Source: a virus
Lineage: Duplodnaviria; Caudoviricetes
Direction: 5' to 3' (one strand)
Length of the DNA: 30,636 bases
IMG/VR virus record: IMGVR_UViG_3300020414_000236
Coordinates: 1 to 30,636 of that record
Under the pieces are notes generated by a model. That model did no database searches and was not told the origin of the DNA. It saw nothing but the letters and a program-made list of their open reading frames with translations. The position numbers were made by a program, and so were the translations under genes. Below are positions 8,309-23,318 of the stretch, piece after piece (positions within the stretch are counted from its first letter, which is position 1; each line of letters opens with the position of its first letter).

Positions 8309-10153
8309 ATGGCATTCTTGTTAAAGGATCGTGTGAAGGAGACTAGTACCACTACAGGCACTGGTGCTTTCACATTAGGAGGCGCATCTGCAACATTCGA
8401 TACATTCTCTTCTGTTCTATCAGACGGAGATACAACATACTATGCTATTGTACATGCCGCTACAGGAACAGACGAATGGGAGGTAGGGCTTGGAACATTT
8501 GCTTCTAGTGGCTCTACCCTCACTCGTACTACTGTTCTTTCATCATCTAATAATGGAAGTGCAACAAACTTCTCTGCAGGTGATAAGGATGTGTTTATTA
8601 CATATCCTGCAGATAAAGCTATATTTAAAGACGGTTCTGGTAACGTTACAATTTCAGGAAACCTTACTGTAGATGGTACAACTACTACGGTAAATAGTAC
8701 TACAGTTACAGTTGATGATCCTATCTTTACTATCGGAGGTGACTCTGCACCTTCTTCAGATGACAACAAAGATCGTGGTATAGAATTTAGATACCATAAT
8801 GGCTCTGCTGCTAAAGTAGGGTTTTTTGGTTTTGATGATAGCACTGGTAAATTTACATTCATACCAGATGCAACAAACAATAGTGAAGTTTTCTCAGGTA
8901 CAGCAGGAACAGTCGTAGCTGCCTTAGAAGGAAACGTAACTGGTGACGTGACAGGAGATGTCACAGGTAATCTTACTGGCAATGTTACAGGAAATGTAAC
9001 TGGAGATGTCACAGGTGACGTTACAGGAAATTTAACTGGTAACGTAACTGGTAATGTTTCAGGTAGTGCAGGTTCTGCTACTGGTAATGCAGCAACAGCT
9101 ACAGCTTTAGCTACTGCACGTAACATAGGTGGTGTATCGTTTGATGGTAGTGCAGATATAACTCTGCCCGGAGTAAACTCAGCAGGTAACCAAGATACGA
9201 CAGGTAATGCAGCAACTGCGACAGCTTTAGAAACAGCTAGACAGATTGCAGGTGTAAACTTTGATGGTACTGCTAACATAGCTATTGCACCTACAGACTT
9301 AACTGGTGTCACATCTACTGCAGCAGAAATAAATATATTAGATGGTGCTACTCTTGATACTGCAGAACTAAACATATTAGACGGTGTTACAGCTACTACT
9401 GCAGAACTAAACATACTAGATGGTGTAACTGCAACCGCAACAGAATTAAATTACGTAGACGGTGTTACATCTGCAATACAAACACAGCTAGACGCAAAGC
9501 CACCACTGAACACCATAGCTGTTACTGTTGCAGGTGGCAAGTTTGTAATTGATGGTACATCACAACACTCTATGTCACTTGTACCTAACGTAACGTATCG
9601 TTTTGACCAGAGTGACTCGTCCAACGCCTCACACCCTATAAAATTCAGTACTACTTCAGATGGTACACATAACTCAGGTTCAGCTTTTACCACAGGAATT
9701 ACCTCTACAGGAACTCCAGGTTCGGCAGGAGCCTACTCAGATGTTAAGTTAGAAAATGACGCACCACAGGTATTATTTTACTATTGCCAAAACCACTCAG
9801 GCATGGGAGCCGAAATAAATGTAGGTAATTCTGCAATAGAAGATCATACTAGCTTGACAGCAGCAGGTTCAACCCTTACAATAGACCTAGCTGCTTCGAA
9901 GCATTTTATAGTAACGATGACAGCAAATACTACTTTTGCTTTTTCAAACATAGATGCAGGGCGTTCAGGTAATATTGTGATCAAAGAAGATTCAACTGGT
10001 GGTTATTCTTTTACTCTACCTTCAGAAGCTAAAACCCCTCTCAATGGTGCTACCATTACACAACAGACTGGTGCAAACAAAGTAAGTGTCTTATCTTATC
10101 ACGTATTAGACTCAAGTAATGTATTAGTAAACTACATTGGAGACTTTGCATAA
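8309..10153 (+). CDS. Fibre protein 1 (multi-repeat shaft, cupredoxin-like domain, C-terminal adaptor domain)
   Basis: 614 aa: N-terminal DRVKET.TT.GTG anchor, G[N/D][V/L]T repeats, GNAATATAL.TAR.I repeats, AELNILDG repeats, HP...YYCQNHSGMG motif. Confidence 0.85.
   Translation: MAFLLKDRVKETSTTTGTGAFTLGGASATFDTFSSVLSDGDTTYYAIVHAATGTDEWEVGLGTFASSGSTLTRTTVLSSSNNGSATNFSAGDKDVFITYPADKAIFKDGSGNVTISGNLTVDGTTTTVNSTTVTVDDPIFTIGGDSAPSSDDNKDRGIEFRYHNGSAAKVGFFGFDDSTGKFTFIPDATNNSEVFSGTAGTVVAALEGNVTGDVTGDVTGNLTGNVTGNVTGDVTGDVTGNLTGNVTGNVSGSAGSATGNAATATALATARNIGGVSFDGSADITLPGVNSAGNQDTTGNAATATALETARQIAGVNFDGTANIAIAPTDLTGVTSTAAEINILDGATLDTAELNILDGVTATTAELNILDGVTATATELNYVDGVTSAIQTQLDAKPPLNTIAVTVAGGKFVIDGTSQHSMSLVPNVTYRFDQSDSSNASHPIKFSTTSDGTHNSGSAFTTGITSTGTPGSAGAYSDVKLENDAPQVLFYYCQNHSGMGAEINVGNSAIEDHTSLTAAGSTLTIDLAASKHFIVTMTANTTFAFSNIDAGRSGNIVIKEDSTGGYSFTLPSEAKTPLNGATITQQTGANKVSVLSYHVLDSSNVLVNYIGDFA
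8930..9061 (+). repeat. G[N/D][V/L]T tetrapeptide tandem repeat (about 11 units)
   Basis: GNVTGDVTGDVTGNLTGNVTGNVTGDVTGDVTGNLTGNVTGNVS; 12-nt period with divergent third codon positions. Confidence 0.9.
9305..9470 (+). repeat. 13-aa (39-nt) repeat, AELNILDGVT type, 4 units
   Basis: GVTSTAAEINILD-GATLDTAELNILD-GVTATTAELNILD-GVTATATELNYVD; ACTGCAGAACTAAACATA occurs twice exactly. Confidence 0.9.
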
Positions 10154-10926
10154 TGCTTGATTTTTTAGATGGTATCTACCAGTACCAAGCTAATACAAGT
10201 ACTAGTAGAAACACAACACAAAGTACAACTCGGTCCACTACTAGAAGTACAACAAAAAGTACTAGTAGTACTGTAGATACTTCTAGCAATACCACTATTT
10301 CTACTACAGCTTCAACTACTAGAAGTACTACGACTACATTTAATACTACTTTTTCTACTTCTTATACTACTACTTATACTACTACTTATAATACTAGTTA
10401 TACAACTAGCTACAGCACCTCTATTCCAGTTACAAGAGAGCCTAGTTCTGGTTGGTATCATAACGGTGGTAATGGCAGTGGTACTCATTACTGGGATGTT
10501 TTTGTTGGCGTCCATGCGGTTTGGGGAGGAACAACTGTAATTGATATTTATTCAAATGGTGGCAATGGAGTTCCAGGCACAGCCACTTCTGCTACAGGAT
10601 ATGATGGAAAAACGTATCTAAGAGGACCAATAACTAACTCTGATATTGCTCTAAAAACTGATATTGCTCCTGCTAGAAACTATCTTGATACAGTTAATAG
10701 TATACCTGTACATACATTTAAATATAAATCAAACGTTGAAGATGAACCAATACTAGGGGTGATGGCACAAGAAGTAGAAGCTGTAGCACCTGAGTTGATG
10801 ACAAATGATACAGACAATGGTTTTAAAGCTGTATATCCACAACAAATACAATACGCAATGTTAAAAGCTATACAAGAACTAACTTCTAAAGTAGAAGATT
10901 TAGAAAATAAAATTAAGAGTATGTAA
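10153..10926 (+). CDS. Ser/Thr-repeat fibre-tip protein A with C-terminal peptidase S74 intramolecular chaperone
   Basis: aa 14-91 are 4-residue S/T repeats; aa 92-162 an aromatic/Gly tip domain; from aa 163 SDIALKTDI...F.YK...GVMAQEVE.V.PEL...MLKAIQEL (S74 signature plus coiled coil). TAATG-coupled to fibre 1. Confidence 0.8.
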   Translation: MLDFLDGIYQYQANTSTSRNTTQSTTRSTTRSTTKSTSSTVDTSSNTTISTTASTTRSTTTTFNTTFSTSYTTTYTTTYNTSYTTSYSTSIPVTREPSSGWYHNGGNGSGTHYWDVFVGVHAVWGGTTVIDIYSNGGNGVPGTATSATGYDGKTYLRGPITNSDIALKTDIAPARNYLDTVNSIPVHTFKYKSNVEDEPILGVMAQEVEAVAPELMTNDTDNGFKAVYPQQIQYAMLKAIQELTSKVEDLENKIKSM

Positions 10927-11231
10927 TGTCTGTTCCTACCAATTATAAAATTGCTAGACAATATGGTGGAGGTTCTCAAAACACTAGCCGTAGTACTAGT
11001 AGATCCACTAGTAGATCCACTAGCAGAAGTACTAGTCGTAATACTACCGTAAGTACAAGCGCATCCACCACTACTACATTTAATACTACTTTTGACACAA
11101 CGTTTGCTACAGGAACTACGTTTACAACTACTTTTGACACAACGTTTGACACAACGTTTGATACAACGTTTGACACTACATTTACTACAACCTTTAATAC
11201 ATCAACTACAAAAACGTTTTATAACACATGA
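10926..11231 (+). CDS. Ser/Thr-repeat protein B (putative return strand of the fibre needle)
   Basis: 101 aa, 54 of them Ser/Thr (hand count). Five SRxT units then TTF[D/N/T] repeats. TAATG overlap upstream and ATGA overlap downstream support real translation. Confidence 0.75.
   Translation: MSVPTNYKIARQYGGGSQNTSRSTSRSTSRSTSRSTSRNTTVSTSASTTTTFNTTFDTTFATGTTFTTTFDTTFDTTFDTTFDTTFTTTFNTSTTKTFYNT
10994..11180 (+). repeat. 12-nt tandem repeats (ACTAGTAGATCC-type and TTTGACACAACG-type)
   Basis: Near-exact 12-mers encode the STSR and FDTT units. Confidence 0.85.
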
Positions 11232-12133
11232 GCATGTTTACTGCTGCTTATATTGATAAGCACCTTGGCAACAAATTAGATTTTACAGCAGACTTGTATA
11301 GATACAAGAAATGTGAAAAAAGATTTAAAGAACTTTGTGAGATACATAACATAGAATCGGCACACGATTGTACTGCCTACGAAAATATTTACTTTAAAAC
11401 ATTAAGCTATACAACATATGCAAATATGTTTATGATGCATCCTTTAAATTTTATATCTTCATTTGATCAAGTACAAGACGCTAGAGCAGATGATGTAGTT
11501 GTTCACGATTATATGACTGCCATAAAAACAGCACAAGAAAAAAGGGGTGGTAAGTACAGAGCAGCCTTTTTGAAGGTGAAAAGGGATATGGATTCTGTAG
11601 CTGTACTTCCCGGTAGCAATAAGTTTGATGAACATTTATGTACTACAAAACTAAAACAATTAGTAGATGAAAATCCTAAATTAGTAGTAAAGCCACATCC
11701 TTTATCTGATAATCAGTTAATGAGTAGAATAAGAGAGTTGGTTCCTGCAAAACAATTAGCTTCACCTATGGAGGATTTATACTCACTGATAGAACAATCT
11801 GAAATAGTGTATAGTACACACATATCAGAAACAGCTTTAACTTCATTGGCACTAGGTAAAGAAATTGAACCGCTTGATAAATTTCAGATGCGTACTCTTG
11901 GTTCGTTTAGTCATGTAAACTATGTGATATATACAGCACTTGATCCTATAAAAGAGATGAATAAAATTTTCTCTTCTCCTAAATCTGGAATAATAAATCT
12001 GGACATTGACACAGATTGGGAGTATAAGATGGAACAATACTTCAAACATATAATGGCTAAAAGAGCAAAAGAAAAAGGTAGATACATATATGGACATGTC
12101 AAGCAAGCCGAGCATAGATCGAGCAATCTTTGA
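11228..12133 (+). CDS. GT-B glycosyltransferase-like protein (KpsS/KpsC- or TagF-like HP motif)
   Basis: VAVLPGS...LVVKPHPL...DLYSLIEQSEIVYSTHISETALTSLALGKEI matches the K.HP and (V.T..S..G.EA...GK.V) pattern of CMP/CDP-donor GT-B C-terminal domains. Confidence 0.6.
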   Translation: MSMFTAAYIDKHLGNKLDFTADLYRYKKCEKRFKELCEIHNIESAHDCTAYENIYFKTLSYTTYANMFMMHPLNFISSFDQVQDARADDVVVHDYMTAIKTAQEKRGGKYRAAFLKVKRDMDSVAVLPGSNKFDEHLCTTKLKQLVDENPKLVVKPHPLSDNQLMSRIRELVPAKQLASPMEDLYSLIEQSEIVYSTHISETALTSLALGKEIEPLDKFQMRTLGSFSHVNYVIYTALDPIKEMNKIFSSPKSGIINLDIDTDWEYKMEQYFKHIMAKRAKEKGRYIYGHVKQAEHRSSNL

Positions 12134-12539
12134 TGTACTATGTTTGTGTACAGATGTAGACACAGATAAAATAGCAGGTAAACTTACAATGAGGCAATTT
12201 GCCGAAAACGTAATAGAACCTATGCAACATGGAAAAGCACACTTAAGATATAGCGCAGATGGTGTACTATTATGGTTTTTTAGTTGGTTACCTATAAACG
12301 ATAATGACTTAAAATATATGAAAGAAAATGATTGCACCTTTCCAGATAGATTTGAAATACTACAAAGAAAAACTGCTGATCATGCTCTTATAACTTTATC
12401 CCTGAGTAGACCAAAAATGTTTATGAAAGATAAAGATATTTGTAAAGATATACTAAAACAAGTAACAACAAGAAACAGTGTTTATGCTTATAGGCCTGTT
12501 CAAGGAAAAACAAAGTTAAAAAAACTAAGGATTCTGTGA
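12090..12539 (+). CDS. Divergent HlyC/RtxC (toxin-activating acyltransferase)-like protein
   Basis: VIEPMQHGKAHLRY..DG.LLWFFSWLPINDND.KY aligns by eye with HlyC ILP.I..GQY...DG.PVAY.SWA.L..E.E.RY; similar size. Catalytic S/H/D not seen. Confidence 0.45.
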   Translation: MDMSSKPSIDRAIFDVLCLCTDVDTDKIAGKLTMRQFAENVIEPMQHGKAHLRYSADGVLLWFFSWLPINDNDLKYMKENDCTFPDRFEILQRKTADHALITLSLSRPKMFMKDKDICKDILKQVTTRNSVYAYRPVQGKTKLKKLRIL

Positions 12540-13102
12540 TGGAAGAAACATCATTTAAAATTAAATCTTACGGTAAAGACGGTGTTATAAAAAAAGTTGA
12601 ATGGTTAATGACCTTATCTGATGGTACAACAGAGTATCAACAGGGAGGAACAGTTCCTATTGAAACAACATTAAGTTCCTCTGCCTCAGAATCAGAAATA
12701 ATAGAAGCAACAAAAGCACAAATTGGTGCAGCATCTTTAGCACAAATACAAGCAGAGGCAAACCATTATAAAATAAATAAACAGTCAGAAGAAGACTCTG
12801 CTACTGAGTATGTAAAATCTACGCTTACAGCCGCAGAAGAAAAAGCAATGTCTCCTGTTATGACTGTAACAAATTTTGATTTTATAATGGCTCTTCAAGA
12901 TAAAGGTCACTATGATACAGTAAATAATTGGGTTACTAATTCTGGAACAGACAAGCAAAAACTCTTTTGGAAAATATCTCCTATGTACTCTTATTCTGCT
13001 CCTTTGAGTGAACAAATATTGGACGGTGCAGGTTTAAGTACAGCCCAACAAAAAGAATTATATCAACATGCTCTTAGTTTGAAAAACTACAGACCAGAAT
13101 AG
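12536..13102 (+). CDS. Putative fibre-assembly/chaperone-like protein
   Basis: 188 aa. C-terminal V.....F..AL...G..D.V.........W......PL.......GL...Q...L...A resembles domains found beside fibre genes. Start is GTG 12536 or ATG 12539. Confidence 0.45.
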   Translation: MMEETSFKIKSYGKDGVIKKVEWLMTLSDGTTEYQQGGTVPIETTLSSSASESEIIEATKAQIGAASLAQIQAEANHYKINKQSEEDSATEYVKSTLTAAEEKAMSPVMTVTNFDFIMALQDKGHYDTVNNWVTNSGTDKQKLFWKISPMYSYSAPLSEQILDGAGLSTAQQKELYQHALSLKNYRPE

Positions 13103-16839: not shown

Positions 16840-18618
16840 ATGGCAGGATATACACGTCAGGCAGCAGCAAATATAGTTACAGGTGGTGTTATTGATGCTG
16901 CAGATTTTAACGCAGAATATAATGCGATTGAAGCAGCATTTAATGCATCAACAGGCCATACACACGATGGTACTACAGGCAATGGTCCACCTATTGAAAA
17001 CATTGGACCTGCTGCTGACCTTGTTATTACAAGTTCTACAGTTCGTCCTAAGACAACCAATACATTGGACTTCGGTACTTCTACTGTTCAATGGAAAGAC
17101 GGTTTCTTTGATGGCACACTAAGAACAGACTTACTTGTAGTAGATGAAACTTCTACACTTACTGGTAATGTCACAGCAGCAGCAGACCTCTCTGTAGGAG
17201 GTAACCTAACTGTAACTGGTAATGCAACAATTAATGGAAACCTAACCTTTGGTGATGCAGCAACAGATACGGTTTCATTTGGTGCAGATATTGACAGTAA
17301 TATTATACCAGATGCTAATAACACATATGATTTAGGATCATCTACGCAGCAATGGAGAAACTTGTTTCTAGATGGACAAGCACAGATAGATGATCTTGTA
17401 GCTGACACTGCTGATATTGATGGTGGTACTATTGATGGAGCAGTAATTGGTGGAACTACTCCTGCAGCTATAACTGGCACAACTGTTACAGGTACTTCTG
17501 TTGTTGGTCCACTAACAGGGGATGTGACTGGTAACATAACAGGCAACGTAACAGGTGATCTTACTGGTGACGTGAAGGCTACAAACGGTACTACTGTTTT
17601 AGACTCTGGTACAAATGGATCAGATGCAACTATTACAGCTACAGTTACAGGAGATGTTACTGGTAACCTAACAGGTAATGTGACAGGAAATGTTACTGGC
17701 AACGTTACAGGAGATTTAACTGGTAATGCTGACACTGCTACAGCCCTAGCAACAGGACGTAACATAGCTTTGACAGGTGCTGTAACAGGTACTGCTACAG
17801 GTTTTGATGGTTCAGCAAATGCAACAATAGCAACAACATTTGGAACTATTACGCTAGGCACAGACACAACTGGTAACTACATGAGTGATGTGACAGCAGG
17901 TACTGGCATTACTGTAACTCACACTGCAGGTGAAGGTAGTAATGCTACCATCGCCCATGCTGATACATCTACTTTATCTGGTGCTACAAGCAACTCAAGC
18001 AATGACTTCATTCAAAACATTACAGTAGATGATAATGGACACGTAACAGCTATTACATCTGGTACTGCTACTGCCTCTGGTGGTAGTACTTATACTGCAG
18101 GTTCAGGTTTAGACCTAAGTGGCTCTAATGTGTTTAGTGTAGAGGCAGACTTAAGAGATGGTATAACTCACGTAGGCCGTGATAGTAACGATTACATTGC
18201 TATAAATGAGCAAAGTATTGACTTTGTTCTTGACGGTAACACAGATGTTCGTATTGAAAACGATGGTGACTTACATGCAGATGGTAATGTTATTGCATAT
18301 TCAACAACTATCTCTGATGAAAGACTTAAGACAGATATACAAAAGATAGACAATGCGTTGGACAAAGTATCTCAACTAAATGGATATACTTTTGAATATA
18401 AGCATGACGGTAAAAAATCTGCAGGGGTGATTGCACAAGAACTAGAAAGTGTAATGCCTAGTGCAATCGAGCAAAAACGTTTACCTCTTCAGACACATGA
18501 TGGTGAAGAGTACAAGATTGTACAATACGATCAACTTCACGGTTTACTTATCGAAGCAATAAAAGAACTAAAAGAAAAACTAGATGAGTGTAAATGCAAA
18601 AAGTGTGAGTGTGAATAA
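16840..18618 (+). CDS. Tail fibre 2 with C-terminal peptidase S74 chaperone
   Basis: 592 aa: N-terminal anchor (A.DFNAEYNAI..AF...GHTHDG), G[N/D][V/L]T repeats, SDERLKTDI...GY.F......AGVIAQE...LLIEAIKEL starting at 18313. Confidence 0.9.
   Translation: MAGYTRQAAANIVTGGVIDAADFNAEYNAIEAAFNASTGHTHDGTTGNGPPIENIGPAADLVITSSTVRPKTTNTLDFGTSTVQWKDGFFDGTLRTDLLVVDETSTLTGNVTAAADLSVGGNLTVTGNATINGNLTFGDAATDTVSFGADIDSNIIPDANNTYDLGSSTQQWRNLFLDGQAQIDDLVADTADIDGGTIDGAVIGGTTPAAITGTTVTGTSVVGPLTGDVTGNITGNVTGDLTGDVKATNGTTVLDSGTNGSDATITATVTGDVTGNLTGNVTGNVTGNVTGDLTGNADTATALATGRNIALTGAVTGTATGFDGSANATIATTFGTITLGTDTTGNYMSDVTAGTGITVTHTAGEGSNATIAHADTSTLSGATSNSSNDFIQNITVDDNGHVTAITSGTATASGGSTYTAGSGLDLSGSNVFSVEADLRDGITHVGRDSNDYIAINEQSIDFVLDGNTDVRIENDGDLHADGNVIAYSTTISDERLKTDIQKIDNALDKVSQLNGYTFEYKHDGKKSAGVIAQELESVMPSAIEQKRLPLQTHDGEEYKIVQYDQLHGLLIEAIKELKEKLDECKCKKCECE
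17506..17727 (+). repeat. Two blocks of G[N/D][V/L/I]T repeats in fibre 2
   Basis: GDVTGNITGNVTGDLTGDV ... GDVTGNLTGNVTGNVTGNVTGDLTGN. Confidence 0.9.
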
Positions 18619-20239: not shown

Positions 20240-22045
20240 ATGGCTAAGAAATTTGCAGGGTTCAAACCTGATACAATAGCAAAAAAGATTTTACCATCTT
20301 TGGGCTACAATGGACCTACAGATCAAAAGTCTATAGCGGCTTTTCTTGCAGCTTCTCCTTCAGCAGCAGCTAAGATGGGTGAATACACTATGGTAGCTAG
20401 ACAGATGGTTGAGGGCAAAACTATTGGTGGTATGAATAGTGGTGGCATGGCTGATGAGATGACTAAAAAGATTACAGCCGATCCTACCTCTATCGTTACT
20501 CAAGCTCCAGTGGCATCGAACAGTGGTACAGGTACAACACTGCAGGGTCAAGAAGGTCAAGCAGGTGCTGCTACTCAAGCTACTGCTGCACAGACTGGTC
20601 CTGCTGCACAGGCTTCTGCACAACCACAACAACAAGCAGCAACTGTTCAAGCAGATACAGCAGCACAGCAAGTTGCTTCATCTACTGCAGGTGTTACTGG
20701 CGCAGTTGGTACAGTTAGCAATCAAGCAGACCCACAGGCTGCACAGGCAGACCCAACAAAAGCATCATCACTAGGATTACAAGCTGCTCAACAAGGTCAG
20801 GCACAACAAGTACAAGCCCCTGCTCCTATGCAGATGACAGCAGATCAAACAATCAGTGGTTCTACTGTTGATCAAGCAAAGGTAGATCAAACATTTGGTA
20901 CAGGCCAGGTGGAAGCTGCCTCTGTAAAAGATGAACTAGATGACTTGATGCAGGACTTTCAAGGTGGTAACACTCCTGCTTGGGCAGCAGGTGCTATGAG
21001 AGCAGCTAACGCAGCTATGGCTGCACGTGGATTGAGTGCATCATCAATGGCAGGGATGGCAGTTGTACAAGCTGCTATGGAATCAGCCCTACCTATTGCA
21101 CAGGCAGATGCATCTAACAAACAACAGATGGCTATGCTCAAGGCTGAACAACGTGCAGCTTTCATGGGCATGGAGTTTGATCAAAAGTTTCAAGCAAAAG
21201 TTAAGAATGCAGCACGTGTATCAGAGATTGCTAACATCAACTTTAGTGCAGAGCAGCAGGTAGCACTAGAGAATGCTAAGATGGCTCAGACTGTAGACCT
21301 AGCTAACCTGTCAAACAGACAAGCTAAAGTTATGGCTGATGCTGCTACTATGTCACAGATGGACATGGCAAATCTTGACAACAGACAAAGAGCAAACATG
21401 CAGAGAGCGCAGTCCTTCTTACAAATGGACATGGCTAACCTAGACAATGAACAACAGGCTGCTATGTTTAGAGCGCAAGAAAATGTTAATGCTATACTGA
21501 GTGATCAGGCTGCAGTAAATGCTGCACAGCAATTCAATGCTACATCTGAAAACCAAACTAATCAGTTCTTTGCATCCTTGGGAGCGCAAGTAGAACAGTT
21601 TAACACAGAACAAACTAATGCTATGGCTAGGTTCAATGCAGGTGAAGCCAATGCAATAGAACAGTTCAACGTATCTCAAGAGAATGCACGTGACCAGTTC
21701 AATGCACAGAACCATTTGGTTGTAGCACAGGCTAACGCTCAGTGGGCGCAGAGTGTAACTACTGCAGCTAATGCAGCAGCTAACCAAGCAAACAGAGATG
21801 CAGCACTTGCTGCTAACAATTTAACTATGACTGCATATAACAATGTTGTACAACGTGAGCGTGACGTATTAGCATGGGCATGGCAGTCAGCAGAAAATGC
21901 GAAAGAATTAGATGGCAATATTGCAGTGGCAAAAATTAGTGCGAGTGGGGGTTCTAACAGCCAAAGCTTCCTTAGTTCTGCTGCTGGTAAGTTCCTTGGT
22001 CAACTCGCAGTCAACGCAGCAGACATTATATTTACAGGTAGTTAA
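20240..22045 (+). CDS. Internal virion (ejection) protein, Gln/Ala-rich
   Basis: 601 aa; P.WA.GA.R.A...MAARGL..SS motif; 11/22-residue periodic helical region. Confidence 0.75.
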   Translation: MAKKFAGFKPDTIAKKILPSLGYNGPTDQKSIAAFLAASPSAAAKMGEYTMVARQMVEGKTIGGMNSGGMADEMTKKITADPTSIVTQAPVASNSGTGTTLQGQEGQAGAATQATAAQTGPAAQASAQPQQQAATVQADTAAQQVASSTAGVTGAVGTVSNQADPQAAQADPTKASSLGLQAAQQGQAQQVQAPAPMQMTADQTISGSTVDQAKVDQTFGTGQVEAASVKDELDDLMQDFQGGNTPAWAAGAMRAANAAMAARGLSASSMAGMAVVQAAMESALPIAQADASNKQQMAMLKAEQRAAFMGMEFDQKFQAKVKNAARVSEIANINFSAEQQVALENAKMAQTVDLANLSNRQAKVMADAATMSQMDMANLDNRQRANMQRAQSFLQMDMANLDNEQQAAMFRAQENVNAILSDQAAVNAAQQFNATSENQTNQFFASLGAQVEQFNTEQTNAMARFNAGEANAIEQFNVSQENARDQFNAQNHLVVAQANAQWAQSVTTAANAAANQANRDAALAANNLTMTAYNNVVQRERDVLAWAWQSAENAKELDGNIAVAKISASGGSNSQSFLSSAAGKFLGQLAVNAADIIFTGS

Positions 22046-22046
22046 T

Positions 22047-23318
22047 ATGACATACAATCCAAGCAGTATATTTTCACGAGAGTCCTACGCACAATATGGC
22101 AGATCACGTGGTGCTTCTAAGCCTACAAAGCCTAAGACTACTGGCTTGGGTTCTAGTCCAAGACCAAAGCCTAGACCATCTACAAGTACTCAAAATAAAA
22201 GTACGTGGGAACGTTTGAAAGAAAGAATATCTAATATCATTGGTGATTCTGGTGGGGATAACAAACCTAAATCTGCCCCTGTAGTTAAGCCTATAAAAGT
22301 ATACGAGAGAAGAGAGTTTAACATAAAGCCAGTAGACGTTTCAGTATCTACATTACCTGATGCACCTACTACACAATTAACAGGCTTTGAGGCTCCTGTC
22401 ATGCGGCCTCAGTCTCCTACTAATAGGCTAGACAAGCCACTAGGATTGTTTGACAGACCTACTCCACCTAGCAGACCAAATGTAAATATGTCCAAGCCTA
22501 TGGGTCTTATGTCACCACCTAACATGGGTACTGTTCCTAGTACATCAACAGGCACAATATACAAAATAAAAAGAGGTGACACTCTTTCAGAGATTGCTAA
22601 GAAGTATAATACGTCTGTTGAAATATTAGCACGAGACAATAACATCAAGGACATAAATAAAATACAAGCAGGTAAAACTTTAAAAGTTCCTTTGTATGGT
22701 ATGGATGATGATCCTGACAAAGAGTTCTATCAGTCTGGTGTACCTCTGGATCAAAGAGATTTTGCACCAGAAGGCCCAGAATATGTACCACTACCTGATT
22801 ACCAAGGTACATCTGACGAAGCAGCTATGGGTGCTGCAGGTAAGCATTCAGGAAAGTTCAGCAGTAAAGATGAGTTCTTAAAATCTATAATACCTGTAGC
22901 AAAAGTTGTTGCTTCACGAACAGGATTGGATTACAGACTAATTGTAGCACAAGCTGCAATAGAAACTGGATGGGGTTCTAAGGTTAAAGGTAATGCTTTC
23001 TTCGGAATAAAAGGACATGGTGCAGATAACACTATAGACTTTAAAACAACAGAAGAAGTAGACGGAAAGAAAGTATCACAGACAGATACCTTTAGAGCCT
23101 ACGAAAATATTGGAGATGCAGCTACTGATTATGGACAATTCCTACAGGATAATCCTAGATATTCAGAGTACTTAGCAGCAACTAATTTGGAAGATGCAGC
23201 AGCAGCTTTACAAGCATCAGGCTATGCAACAGATAGCAAGTATGGTGAGAAAGTATTGACTACTGCAAGGGGGAGAACATTGAGAAACTTTTTAGAAAGA
23301 AACCCAGAGTATAAATAA
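22047..23318 (+). CDS. LysM + GH73 (FlgJ-like) peptidoglycan hydrolase with disordered N-terminus
   Basis: LysM: YKIKRGDTLSEIAKKYNTSVE.LA..NNI.D.N.I.AG..LKVP. GH73: AQAAIETGWG, N.FFGIKG, FRAY, NPRY, GYATD..Y. Start placed at ATG 22047, just after the upstream stop. Confidence 0.9.
   Translation: MTYNPSSIFSRESYAQYGRSRGASKPTKPKTTGLGSSPRPKPRPSTSTQNKSTWERLKERISNIIGDSGGDNKPKSAPVVKPIKVYERREFNIKPVDVSVSTLPDAPTTQLTGFEAPVMRPQSPTNRLDKPLGLFDRPTPPSRPNVNMSKPMGLMSPPNMGTVPSTSTGTIYKIKRGDTLSEIAKKYNTSVEILARDNNIKDINKIQAGKTLKVPLYGMDDDPDKEFYQSGVPLDQRDFAPEGPEYVPLPDYQGTSDEAAMGAAGKHSGKFSSKDEFLKSIIPVAKVVASRTGLDYRLIVAQAAIETGWGSKVKGNAFFGIKGHGADNTIDFKTTEEVDGKKVSQTDTFRAYENIGDAATDYGQFLQDNPRYSEYLAATNLEDAAAALQASGYATDSKYGEKVLTTARGRTLRNFLERNPEYK

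Follow-up and report, generated by a model that had tools for sequence, protein, structure and literature searches.

The window analysed here, a stretch of 30,636 nucleotides from a virus of the Caudoviricetes (IMG/VR record IMGVR_UViG_3300020414_000236), contains a marine podophage virion-gene block in which portal, major capsid, adaptor and fibre genes were recognized through Pfam and PHROG matches. The capsid protein shares 80% identity with its counterpart in Roseobacter phage CRP-2 and 61% with that in HMO-2011; judged from its annotation, the fibre region of CRP-2, a cultured relative, is arranged differently. Two small genes, termed A and B, sit between a 614-aa fibre gene and the 301-aa gene C, with overlapping stops and starts. 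The features of the region are as follows:

8309..10153, + strand: proximal fibre, 614 aa, with a conserved C-terminal domain at ~9836-10150 (PHROG tail-fibre matches)
10153-10926, + strand: gene A, 257 aa
10153..10191, + strand: A residues 1-13, base segment opposite the C-terminus of B, resembling the N-termini of single-gene forms; Y11 faces F98 (register 109, defined below)
10192..10428, + strand: A arm, residues 14-92, putative outgoing strand (register alignment and pair matrix)
10429..10638, + strand: A tip domain, residues 93-162, strain-variable (profile of single-gene tips)
10639..10926, + strand: A residues 163-257, Peptidase_S74 intramolecular chaperone (Pfam PF13884), with Ser163 and Lys168 present
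10926-11231, + strand: gene B, 101 aa
10926..10973, + strand: B residues 1-16, likely the last tip-domain strand plus a Gly turn (hhalign)
10974..11231, + strand: B arm, residues 17-95, putative returning strand, and C-terminal base motif (register alignment)
11228..12133, + strand: gene C, 301 aa, predicted KpsC/WbbB/KrkA-like glycosyltransferase fold (AF2, Foldseek, VIA)

The Atlas features of the proximal fibre (8309..10153) reach 0.90 to clusters in which 39-47% carry PF26209 (phiTE_241_C), and in 80 of 112 loci the gene preceding the first arm closes with the terminal motif of this protein. Elsewhere on the + strand of the window, a second fibre with an S74 domain is encoded at 16840-18618; its chaperone shares only 36% identity with that of A, so the two do not represent a recent copy within the genome. 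A LysM and glucosaminidase protein lies among the virion genes at 21912-23318 (+), and gene C is followed by two unannotated ORFs (12090-12539 and 12536-13102, both +) that are almost confined to close phage relatives. A likeness of the ORF at 12090-12539 to HlyC-type acyltransferases found no support in Pfam or PHROG and was dropped. Direct searches with B returned nothing beyond its own copy, whilst in the Atlas it matched unnamed viral clusters (under 0.9), with a model of low confidence; a Pfam hit of B to coronavirus nucleocapsid was below the cut-off, and was rejected as a compositional match.

A preliminary description of this DNA had proposed that the arms of A and B are complementary in antiparallel register, with positions counted from the start of each arm summing to 80. 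This sum holds and is equivalent to A position + B position = 109 (register 109), which is the best among the A–B registers and gives 79 gap-free rungs, in keeping with the ~80 residues claimed. The five Tyr of A (Y71/75/79/83/87) face five Arg of B (R38/34/30/26/22); the mid-arm rungs F67/V42, F63/A46, R57/F52, A53/F56 and I49/F60 follow, and at the far end K35, R31, R27, Q23 and R19 of A lie opposite F74, 78, 82, 86 and 90 of B, all as had been described. The count of 10 cation–aromatic rungs was also correct, whereas the aromatic/non-aromatic rungs number 17 instead of 15, S39/F70 and T43/F66 having been missed. The stated prevalence of S, T, N and D is likewise seen, at 77% of A14-92 and 75% of B17-95. 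When the repeat units of B were shuffled, 0/1000 arrangements reached the observed score of 31.7 (null mean 6.6, maximum 19.9; matrix from 28 long relatives).

Each arm is roughly palindromic, and the A and B arms are alike when laid parallel (offset 3), so that the window alone shows a pattern and not a partner. Among close relatives, swapped B chains score no worse than the cognate B, and the two phase slips match in the A–A and B–B registers as well. It could be argued that each chain pairs with itself, as B–B and A–A dimers or fold-backs, and that similar, palindromic arms would produce the cross-gene match as a side effect: in the window B–B scores 29.3 with the matrix against 25.1 for A–B (A–A 18.8), and the self-pairing controls contain 10 (B–B) and 8 (A–A) cation–aromatic rungs. 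The best B–B register, however, is 108, off the chain symmetry centre of 112, and B–B pairing sets aromatics against aromatics where A–A pairing leaves the centre without any. Self-pairing would also give no need for the Tyr count of A to follow the Arg count of B across genes.

The question of partners was addressed through the wider family. Loci were gathered with a repeat-motif scan (76 loci) and with an alignment built on 35 of the 63 C-homologue hits; of the loci reached through C, the top 80 were used from each of two sets (219 viral and 423 metagenome loci). A C homologue is present in 211 of the 241 sequences examined, and an arm-like ORF accompanies it in 201 of those 211 (loose filter, redundant loci). 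The distinct, complete two-gene pairs number 52, with arms of ~80 to ~980 residues, and the lengths of the A and B arms are correlated at r=0.994; for 33 non-redundant pairs r=0.996 with a median difference of 12 residues, values that overstate independence because the pairs share descent and are not 33 independent events. The expectation that unit numbers in A and B change together is borne out at close range, where A arms of 80, 72, 76 and 76 residues (window, L162, L163 and L165) have matching B arms, and where a contig from another study shows 24 gap bases in the A arm and two 12-base deletions in that of B.

For long pairs, a single antiparallel register brings R/K opposite an aromatic in 103/103 (L238), 106/106 (L073) and 143/159 (L094) cases, and the A–A, B–B and parallel controls score far below antiparallel A–B. 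The cognate B was ranked first of 33 for 27 of the 33 A chains; the exceptions are L203 (3rd), L215 (15th) and four short pairs, that of the window among them (window copy L001 4th, L165 5th, L196 26th and L128 33rd). The global register was kept in 143 of 183 segments of 100 residues and another was preferred in 40 of 183, many of the off-register segments being displaced by 1-2 residues, as by a bulge, or moved onto an internal repeat. Inverted repeats were sought in the DNA of three regions, and the longest was only 22 nt, with no long repeat that would explain the arm match; an inverted duplication of DNA was therefore ruled out as its source, and the match lies at the protein level. These results also bear on the view that the glycosylated arms form disordered stalks of mucin type, with a match that is a statistical or DNA-level artefact. 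The composition of the A and B arms (45% Thr), the adjoining sugar-transferase fold and the low model confidence for the arms would suit such stalks, but the cognate ranking, the register held constant over ~900 residues and the two-sided changes described below need residue-level contact, and we regard this view as highly improbable.

The pairing code was learnt on 28 long pairs comprising 18,814 rungs, 5 of the 33 pairs having been dropped as short or unclear. Within these, R–aromatic rungs account for 1160/1304 Arg and K–aromatic rungs for 898/1074 Lys, a part of the code that is circular since the register was picked on R/K/H against aromatics. The preference of His for Tyr over Phe or Trp (H–Y, 468/509 His), Q–W (384/678 Gln) and N–S (1347/2595 Asn) are independent of the choice of register. 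The log-odds are 4.5 for H–Y, 4.0 for Q–W, 3.7 for F–R, 3.4 for F–K, 2.9 for R–W, 2.7 for K–W, 2.5 for K–Y, 2.0 for R–Y and 1.6 for N–S, and rungs that pair aromatic with aromatic or basic with basic are depleted in the 28 pairs. Successive coded rungs are spaced by 4 (1367), 6 (975), 8 or 10 residues, and the nearly always even spacing puts them on one face of a β-strand. Residues on the same face, two away from the coded rungs, are 95-99% Thr on both strands; the opposite face is variable, consists of 86-95% small residues (Val counted) and admits a few percent of E, Q, V, I, L and Y. Across 15 comparisons of relatives, 85 rungs were altered on both sides and 279 on one side with the coded pair kept, 110 lost the coded pair and 1267 were unchanged; the two-sided changes include cross-strand polarity swaps, for example from H–Y to R–F. 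The earlier suggestion of a cation–π ladder in place of HxH-bound iron agrees with the lack of His in A14-92 and in B, but cation–π pairing alone is too narrow a description, as H–Y, Q–W and N–S are used too.

Applied to 65 lone arm genes (up to 1701 aa), the matrix derived from two-gene pairs identifies 45 in which an end-to-end hairpin dominates, the remaining 20 failing the hairpin filter. Two very long arm genes, L032:377-4186 (Trp-rich, and almost without R/K) and L074:1646-6697 (probably with a large register shift), fail the global hairpin test. In L007 and L052 the end of an A-like arm runs through a six-residue Pro/Gly turn into the start of a B-like arm, with register 109, and in L084, L088, L174, L200 and others a tip domain lies between the two arms. 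Five long B-like genes (L107, L145, L160, L207 and L240), the partners of which lie off the fetched DNA, do not self-pair. Both the linkage of an A-type arm to a B-type arm in single-gene relatives and the behaviour of these long B chains count against self-pairing, which we consider improbable. Antiparallel pairing of A with B is, on the evidence of sequence, very probable. A code written across two genes, as originally proposed, is thus supported by the family, with the amendment that A and B would be the split form of a single-chain hairpin, likely one that was cut in its tip loop by insertion of the chaperone. B residues 6-11 were placed by hhalign on the last tip strand of the single-gene forms (probability 73%, partly repeat-driven), the N-terminal residues of B not being significant alone against the single-gene tip profile.

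Against a profile of 23 single-gene tips the A tip scores 20.0 bits without composition correction (0/500 shuffles), whilst with the correction the window's own A is unscored; the relative L163 matches the profile with E 4e-10 (10-sequence search). The A tip stops just past a conserved Y-x-R-G strand, and the S74 chaperone starts at that point. The segment 10497-10596 is swapped for other sequence in contigs of four runs in which the arms are retained, and the tip is variable in the alignment; exchange of the tip between strains while the arms persist is as for a receptor-binding part, which the A tip is likely to be. Residues 163-216 of A match PF13884 at 49.6 bits (cut-off 22), and A aligns with S16 gp37 (PDB 6F45; E 3e-6), mainly through the chaperone. 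S163 and K168 align with the cleavage motif of S16 gp37 (K in 5/5 and S in 4/5 aligned sequences), and we take this Ser–Lys pair to be the S74 cleavage-site residues. The S74 domain has been shown to promote oligomerization and to cleave itself (PMC12143355). Whilst the Pfam match and the aligned Ser163/Lys168 liken the domain to the chaperones of S16 gp37 (6F45) and endosialidases, S74 elsewhere normally ends a triple β-helix fibre, whereas here it lies inside the hairpin tip and coincides with the two-gene split.

Sorted by motif, the A-chain tails of the 52 pairs comprise 25 that are Hint-like, 18 short Gly/Cys tails, 7 S74 domains and 2 others. The ends replacing S74 in 25/52 (L071, L094, L098, L190 and others) are labelled Hint-like by a motif, and Pfam gave no match for the two Hint-like tails tested; if the label is right, two unrelated self-cleaving domains occur at one split point. 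A methyltransferase-like gene lies between the arm genes in 20 of the 52 pairs. Such SAM methyltransferase-like genes (for example L106:5373-6413, L124:4479-5510 and L108:5775-6329) are often fused to a Hint-like domain; those that intervene mostly adjoin A chains with a Gly-rich CxxGC tail and may resemble the GAMT/Rmt2 arginine methyltransferases.

The best explanation overall, to which we give a probability of roughly 0.8, is that A and B are the out and back halves of a split hairpin ribbon that is docked on the fibre and bears a tip. A would provide the outgoing half and B the returning half of what is a single chain in many relatives, the two forming a gap-free antiparallel two-stranded β-ribbon of ~79 rungs with a predicted length of at most 26 nm. 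At every fourth or sixth rung of one face an aromatic would stand opposite R/K/H/Q, with Thr/Thr rungs flanking it, and the irregular 4/6 spacing would fix a single register; the other face would carry small polar pairs such as N/S. The ribbon would dock on the upstream fibre, for which the C-terminal domain of the proximal fibre is the likely site, a placement that we infer, and would carry a variable, probably receptor-binding tip that the N-terminal strand of B completes. Because S74 has to end its chain, insertion of the chaperone into the tip loop would have split the hairpin into two genes; in assembly, the chaperone would gather three A tips before cutting itself off at N162/S163. The presence of S74 on A favours three copies per fibre in the window's phage, and we think this number fairly probable there from the domain content; most relatives are without S74.

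If there are three copies, the A:B hairpins may be wound into a closed six-stranded, gp37-like needle with a small polar core (S/N/T/A/G) and the aromatic ladder outside, an arrangement that would refine the split-hairpin reading and does not compete with it. The chaperone on A and an uncoded face made up so largely of small residues, as a tight core needs, point this way, as does the size of the gp37 needle itself (~150 by 25 Å; PMC3004832). The closed needle sits less well with the 45 of 52 A chains that are without an S74 tail, with a tip that folds confidently as a single chain (AF2), with the E, Q, V, I, L and Y found on the uncoded face and with the absence of His from the window's arms. 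The small-residue face suits a free ribbon or a polar core alike, and we hold the needle to be a possible but somewhat doubtful refinement.

An AF2 model of the single-gene form L200 (20 sequences) is confident for the tip (~64-142), whilst both arms have a pLDDT <50; Foldseek with the single-gene model gave no E under 0.001, and VIA with its tip gave a best Z of 4.1, with no clear match. The needle of gp37 contains iron-bound His pairs at His-x-His sites, and its strands reportedly run out and back in antiparallel fashion, as Bartual is said to have described in 2010. Cross-strand aromatic/cation and Thr/Thr pairs also occur in designed β-hairpins, which share their local chemistry with the arms but are synthetic and have few rungs, whereas the arms are natural, reach up to ~980 rungs and carry a register-setting code across two genes. 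A thin distal extension with a terminal head has been described for the fibre tips of gp37 and C24 (PMC3004832; bioRxiv 10.1101/2024.12.24.630238), and the sequence of A and B suggests an outline similar to that of the T4 gp37 needle (PDB 2XGF) and Bizionia C24 (6OV6). The gp37 needle, however, is ~15 nm long and is a His-metal homotrimer of one chain; the A:B arms have two genes, a repeating pair code, lengths of ~80-980 residues and, in the window, no His. Where His is found in the arms of relatives it faces Tyr in the great majority of cases, as counted above, unlike the gp37 metal sites. A:B in the window lacks the His-metal sites of the gp37 needle and is not, on present evidence, a member of that class.

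The AF2 model of gene C (pLDDT 92.8) has KpsC, WbbB and KrkA as its closest Foldseek matches (E ~1e-5), and VIA aligned 224 residues to KpsC 6mgc (Z 10.1, rmsd 4.1), the top 15 rows all belonging to the KpsC/WbbB group; sequence alignment of C found no relative in the PDB. The fold as modelled is CMP-sugar-transferase-like. Residues H157, P158, K109 and Y110 are present in 140/140 homologues, the KY equivalence being set by motif order and not by superposition. The QXXXD nucleophile motif is not conserved in the 140 C homologues, in which the loop, placed where we presume it to lie from the context of KpsC, reads G129-S-N131-K and 86 sequences have Lys, 5 Asp, at position 134; the sole invariant Asp is D47. 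The HP and KY motifs were named for KpsC (PMC10148158). The retaining β-Kdo transferases KpsC (GT107), WbbB (GT99) and KrkA share with C a reduced GT-B fold and the HP and KY motifs, but C is without a conserved QXXXD, is 10-16% identical to them and would have a protein, not a glycan, as its acceptor. C keeps HP and KY but not QXXXD, and is not classed here as a retaining β-Kdo transferase. Its co-occurrence with arm genes tips the balance slightly towards a role in glycosylating the arms, in which it would transfer an acidic sugar from a CMP-activated donor onto Ser/Thr and shield the free edges of the strands.

No description of such a paired-arm fibre was found in open-licence PMC and bioRxiv; PMC13730344 deals with a different, rope-and-dimer type of fibre. 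Long two-stranded β-structure with a readable partner code is absent from the phage fibre classes described in the searchable literature. More broadly, we lean, by a little, towards a modular protein duplex that is used in unrelated phage lineages and relies on a small alphabet (H–Y, Q–W, R/K–F/W/Y, N–S and T–T) for recognition resembling that of nucleic acids, in fibres from ~20 nm to >300 nm, with inserted self-cleaving assembly domains and finishing by a dedicated sugar transferase. If true, heterodimeric β-ribbons would have a programmable code of natural origin, and ~19,000 natural rungs would supply design rules for sequence-specific β heterodimers of chosen length. It would raise the evolutionary question of how repeats expand as mirror images across two genes, and would point to very long filaments, probably carrying glycans, by which common aquatic phages reach their hosts. 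The small size of the window's pair (162 + 101 residues) and the existence of a cultured member in KVP40 make these ideas testable now.

Among cultured phages, the model vibriophage KVP40 encodes a clear hairpin in KVP40.0254 (L241:4977-5570, +, 197 aa; 32.8 vs 12.6 for the next register). A C homologue lies two genes further on, and KVP40.0254 stands outside the block of annotated tail genes; 44 phage records share its N-terminal module. The N-terminal module of L073, L027 and KVP40.0254 was considered as a gp38-like monomer attachment, but it had no PDB match and only a PHROG of unknown function, and no conclusion on stoichiometry was drawn from it. Lullwater gp41 is weaker (19.0 vs 17.4) and fails the hairpin filter, and no clear arm adjoins the C homologues of Cr30 and DLP6; in DLP6 a long unannotated frame with a Hint-like end (L242:230-1664, +) is situated upstream of the C homologue. 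In Vibrio phage 6E35-1b an unannotated arm ORF of 177 aa (L245:2501-3034, +) lies under three short annotated ORFs, directly before the C homologue. Table S8 of PMC12028318 gives other short ORFs at this site, without a proteomic value, and the arm ORF is absent from that place in the annotation of Vibrio phage 6E35-1a. The 6E35-1b arm ORF pairs with itself at 39.4 vs 10.5, and contains a turn followed by the same start motif as the B arm.
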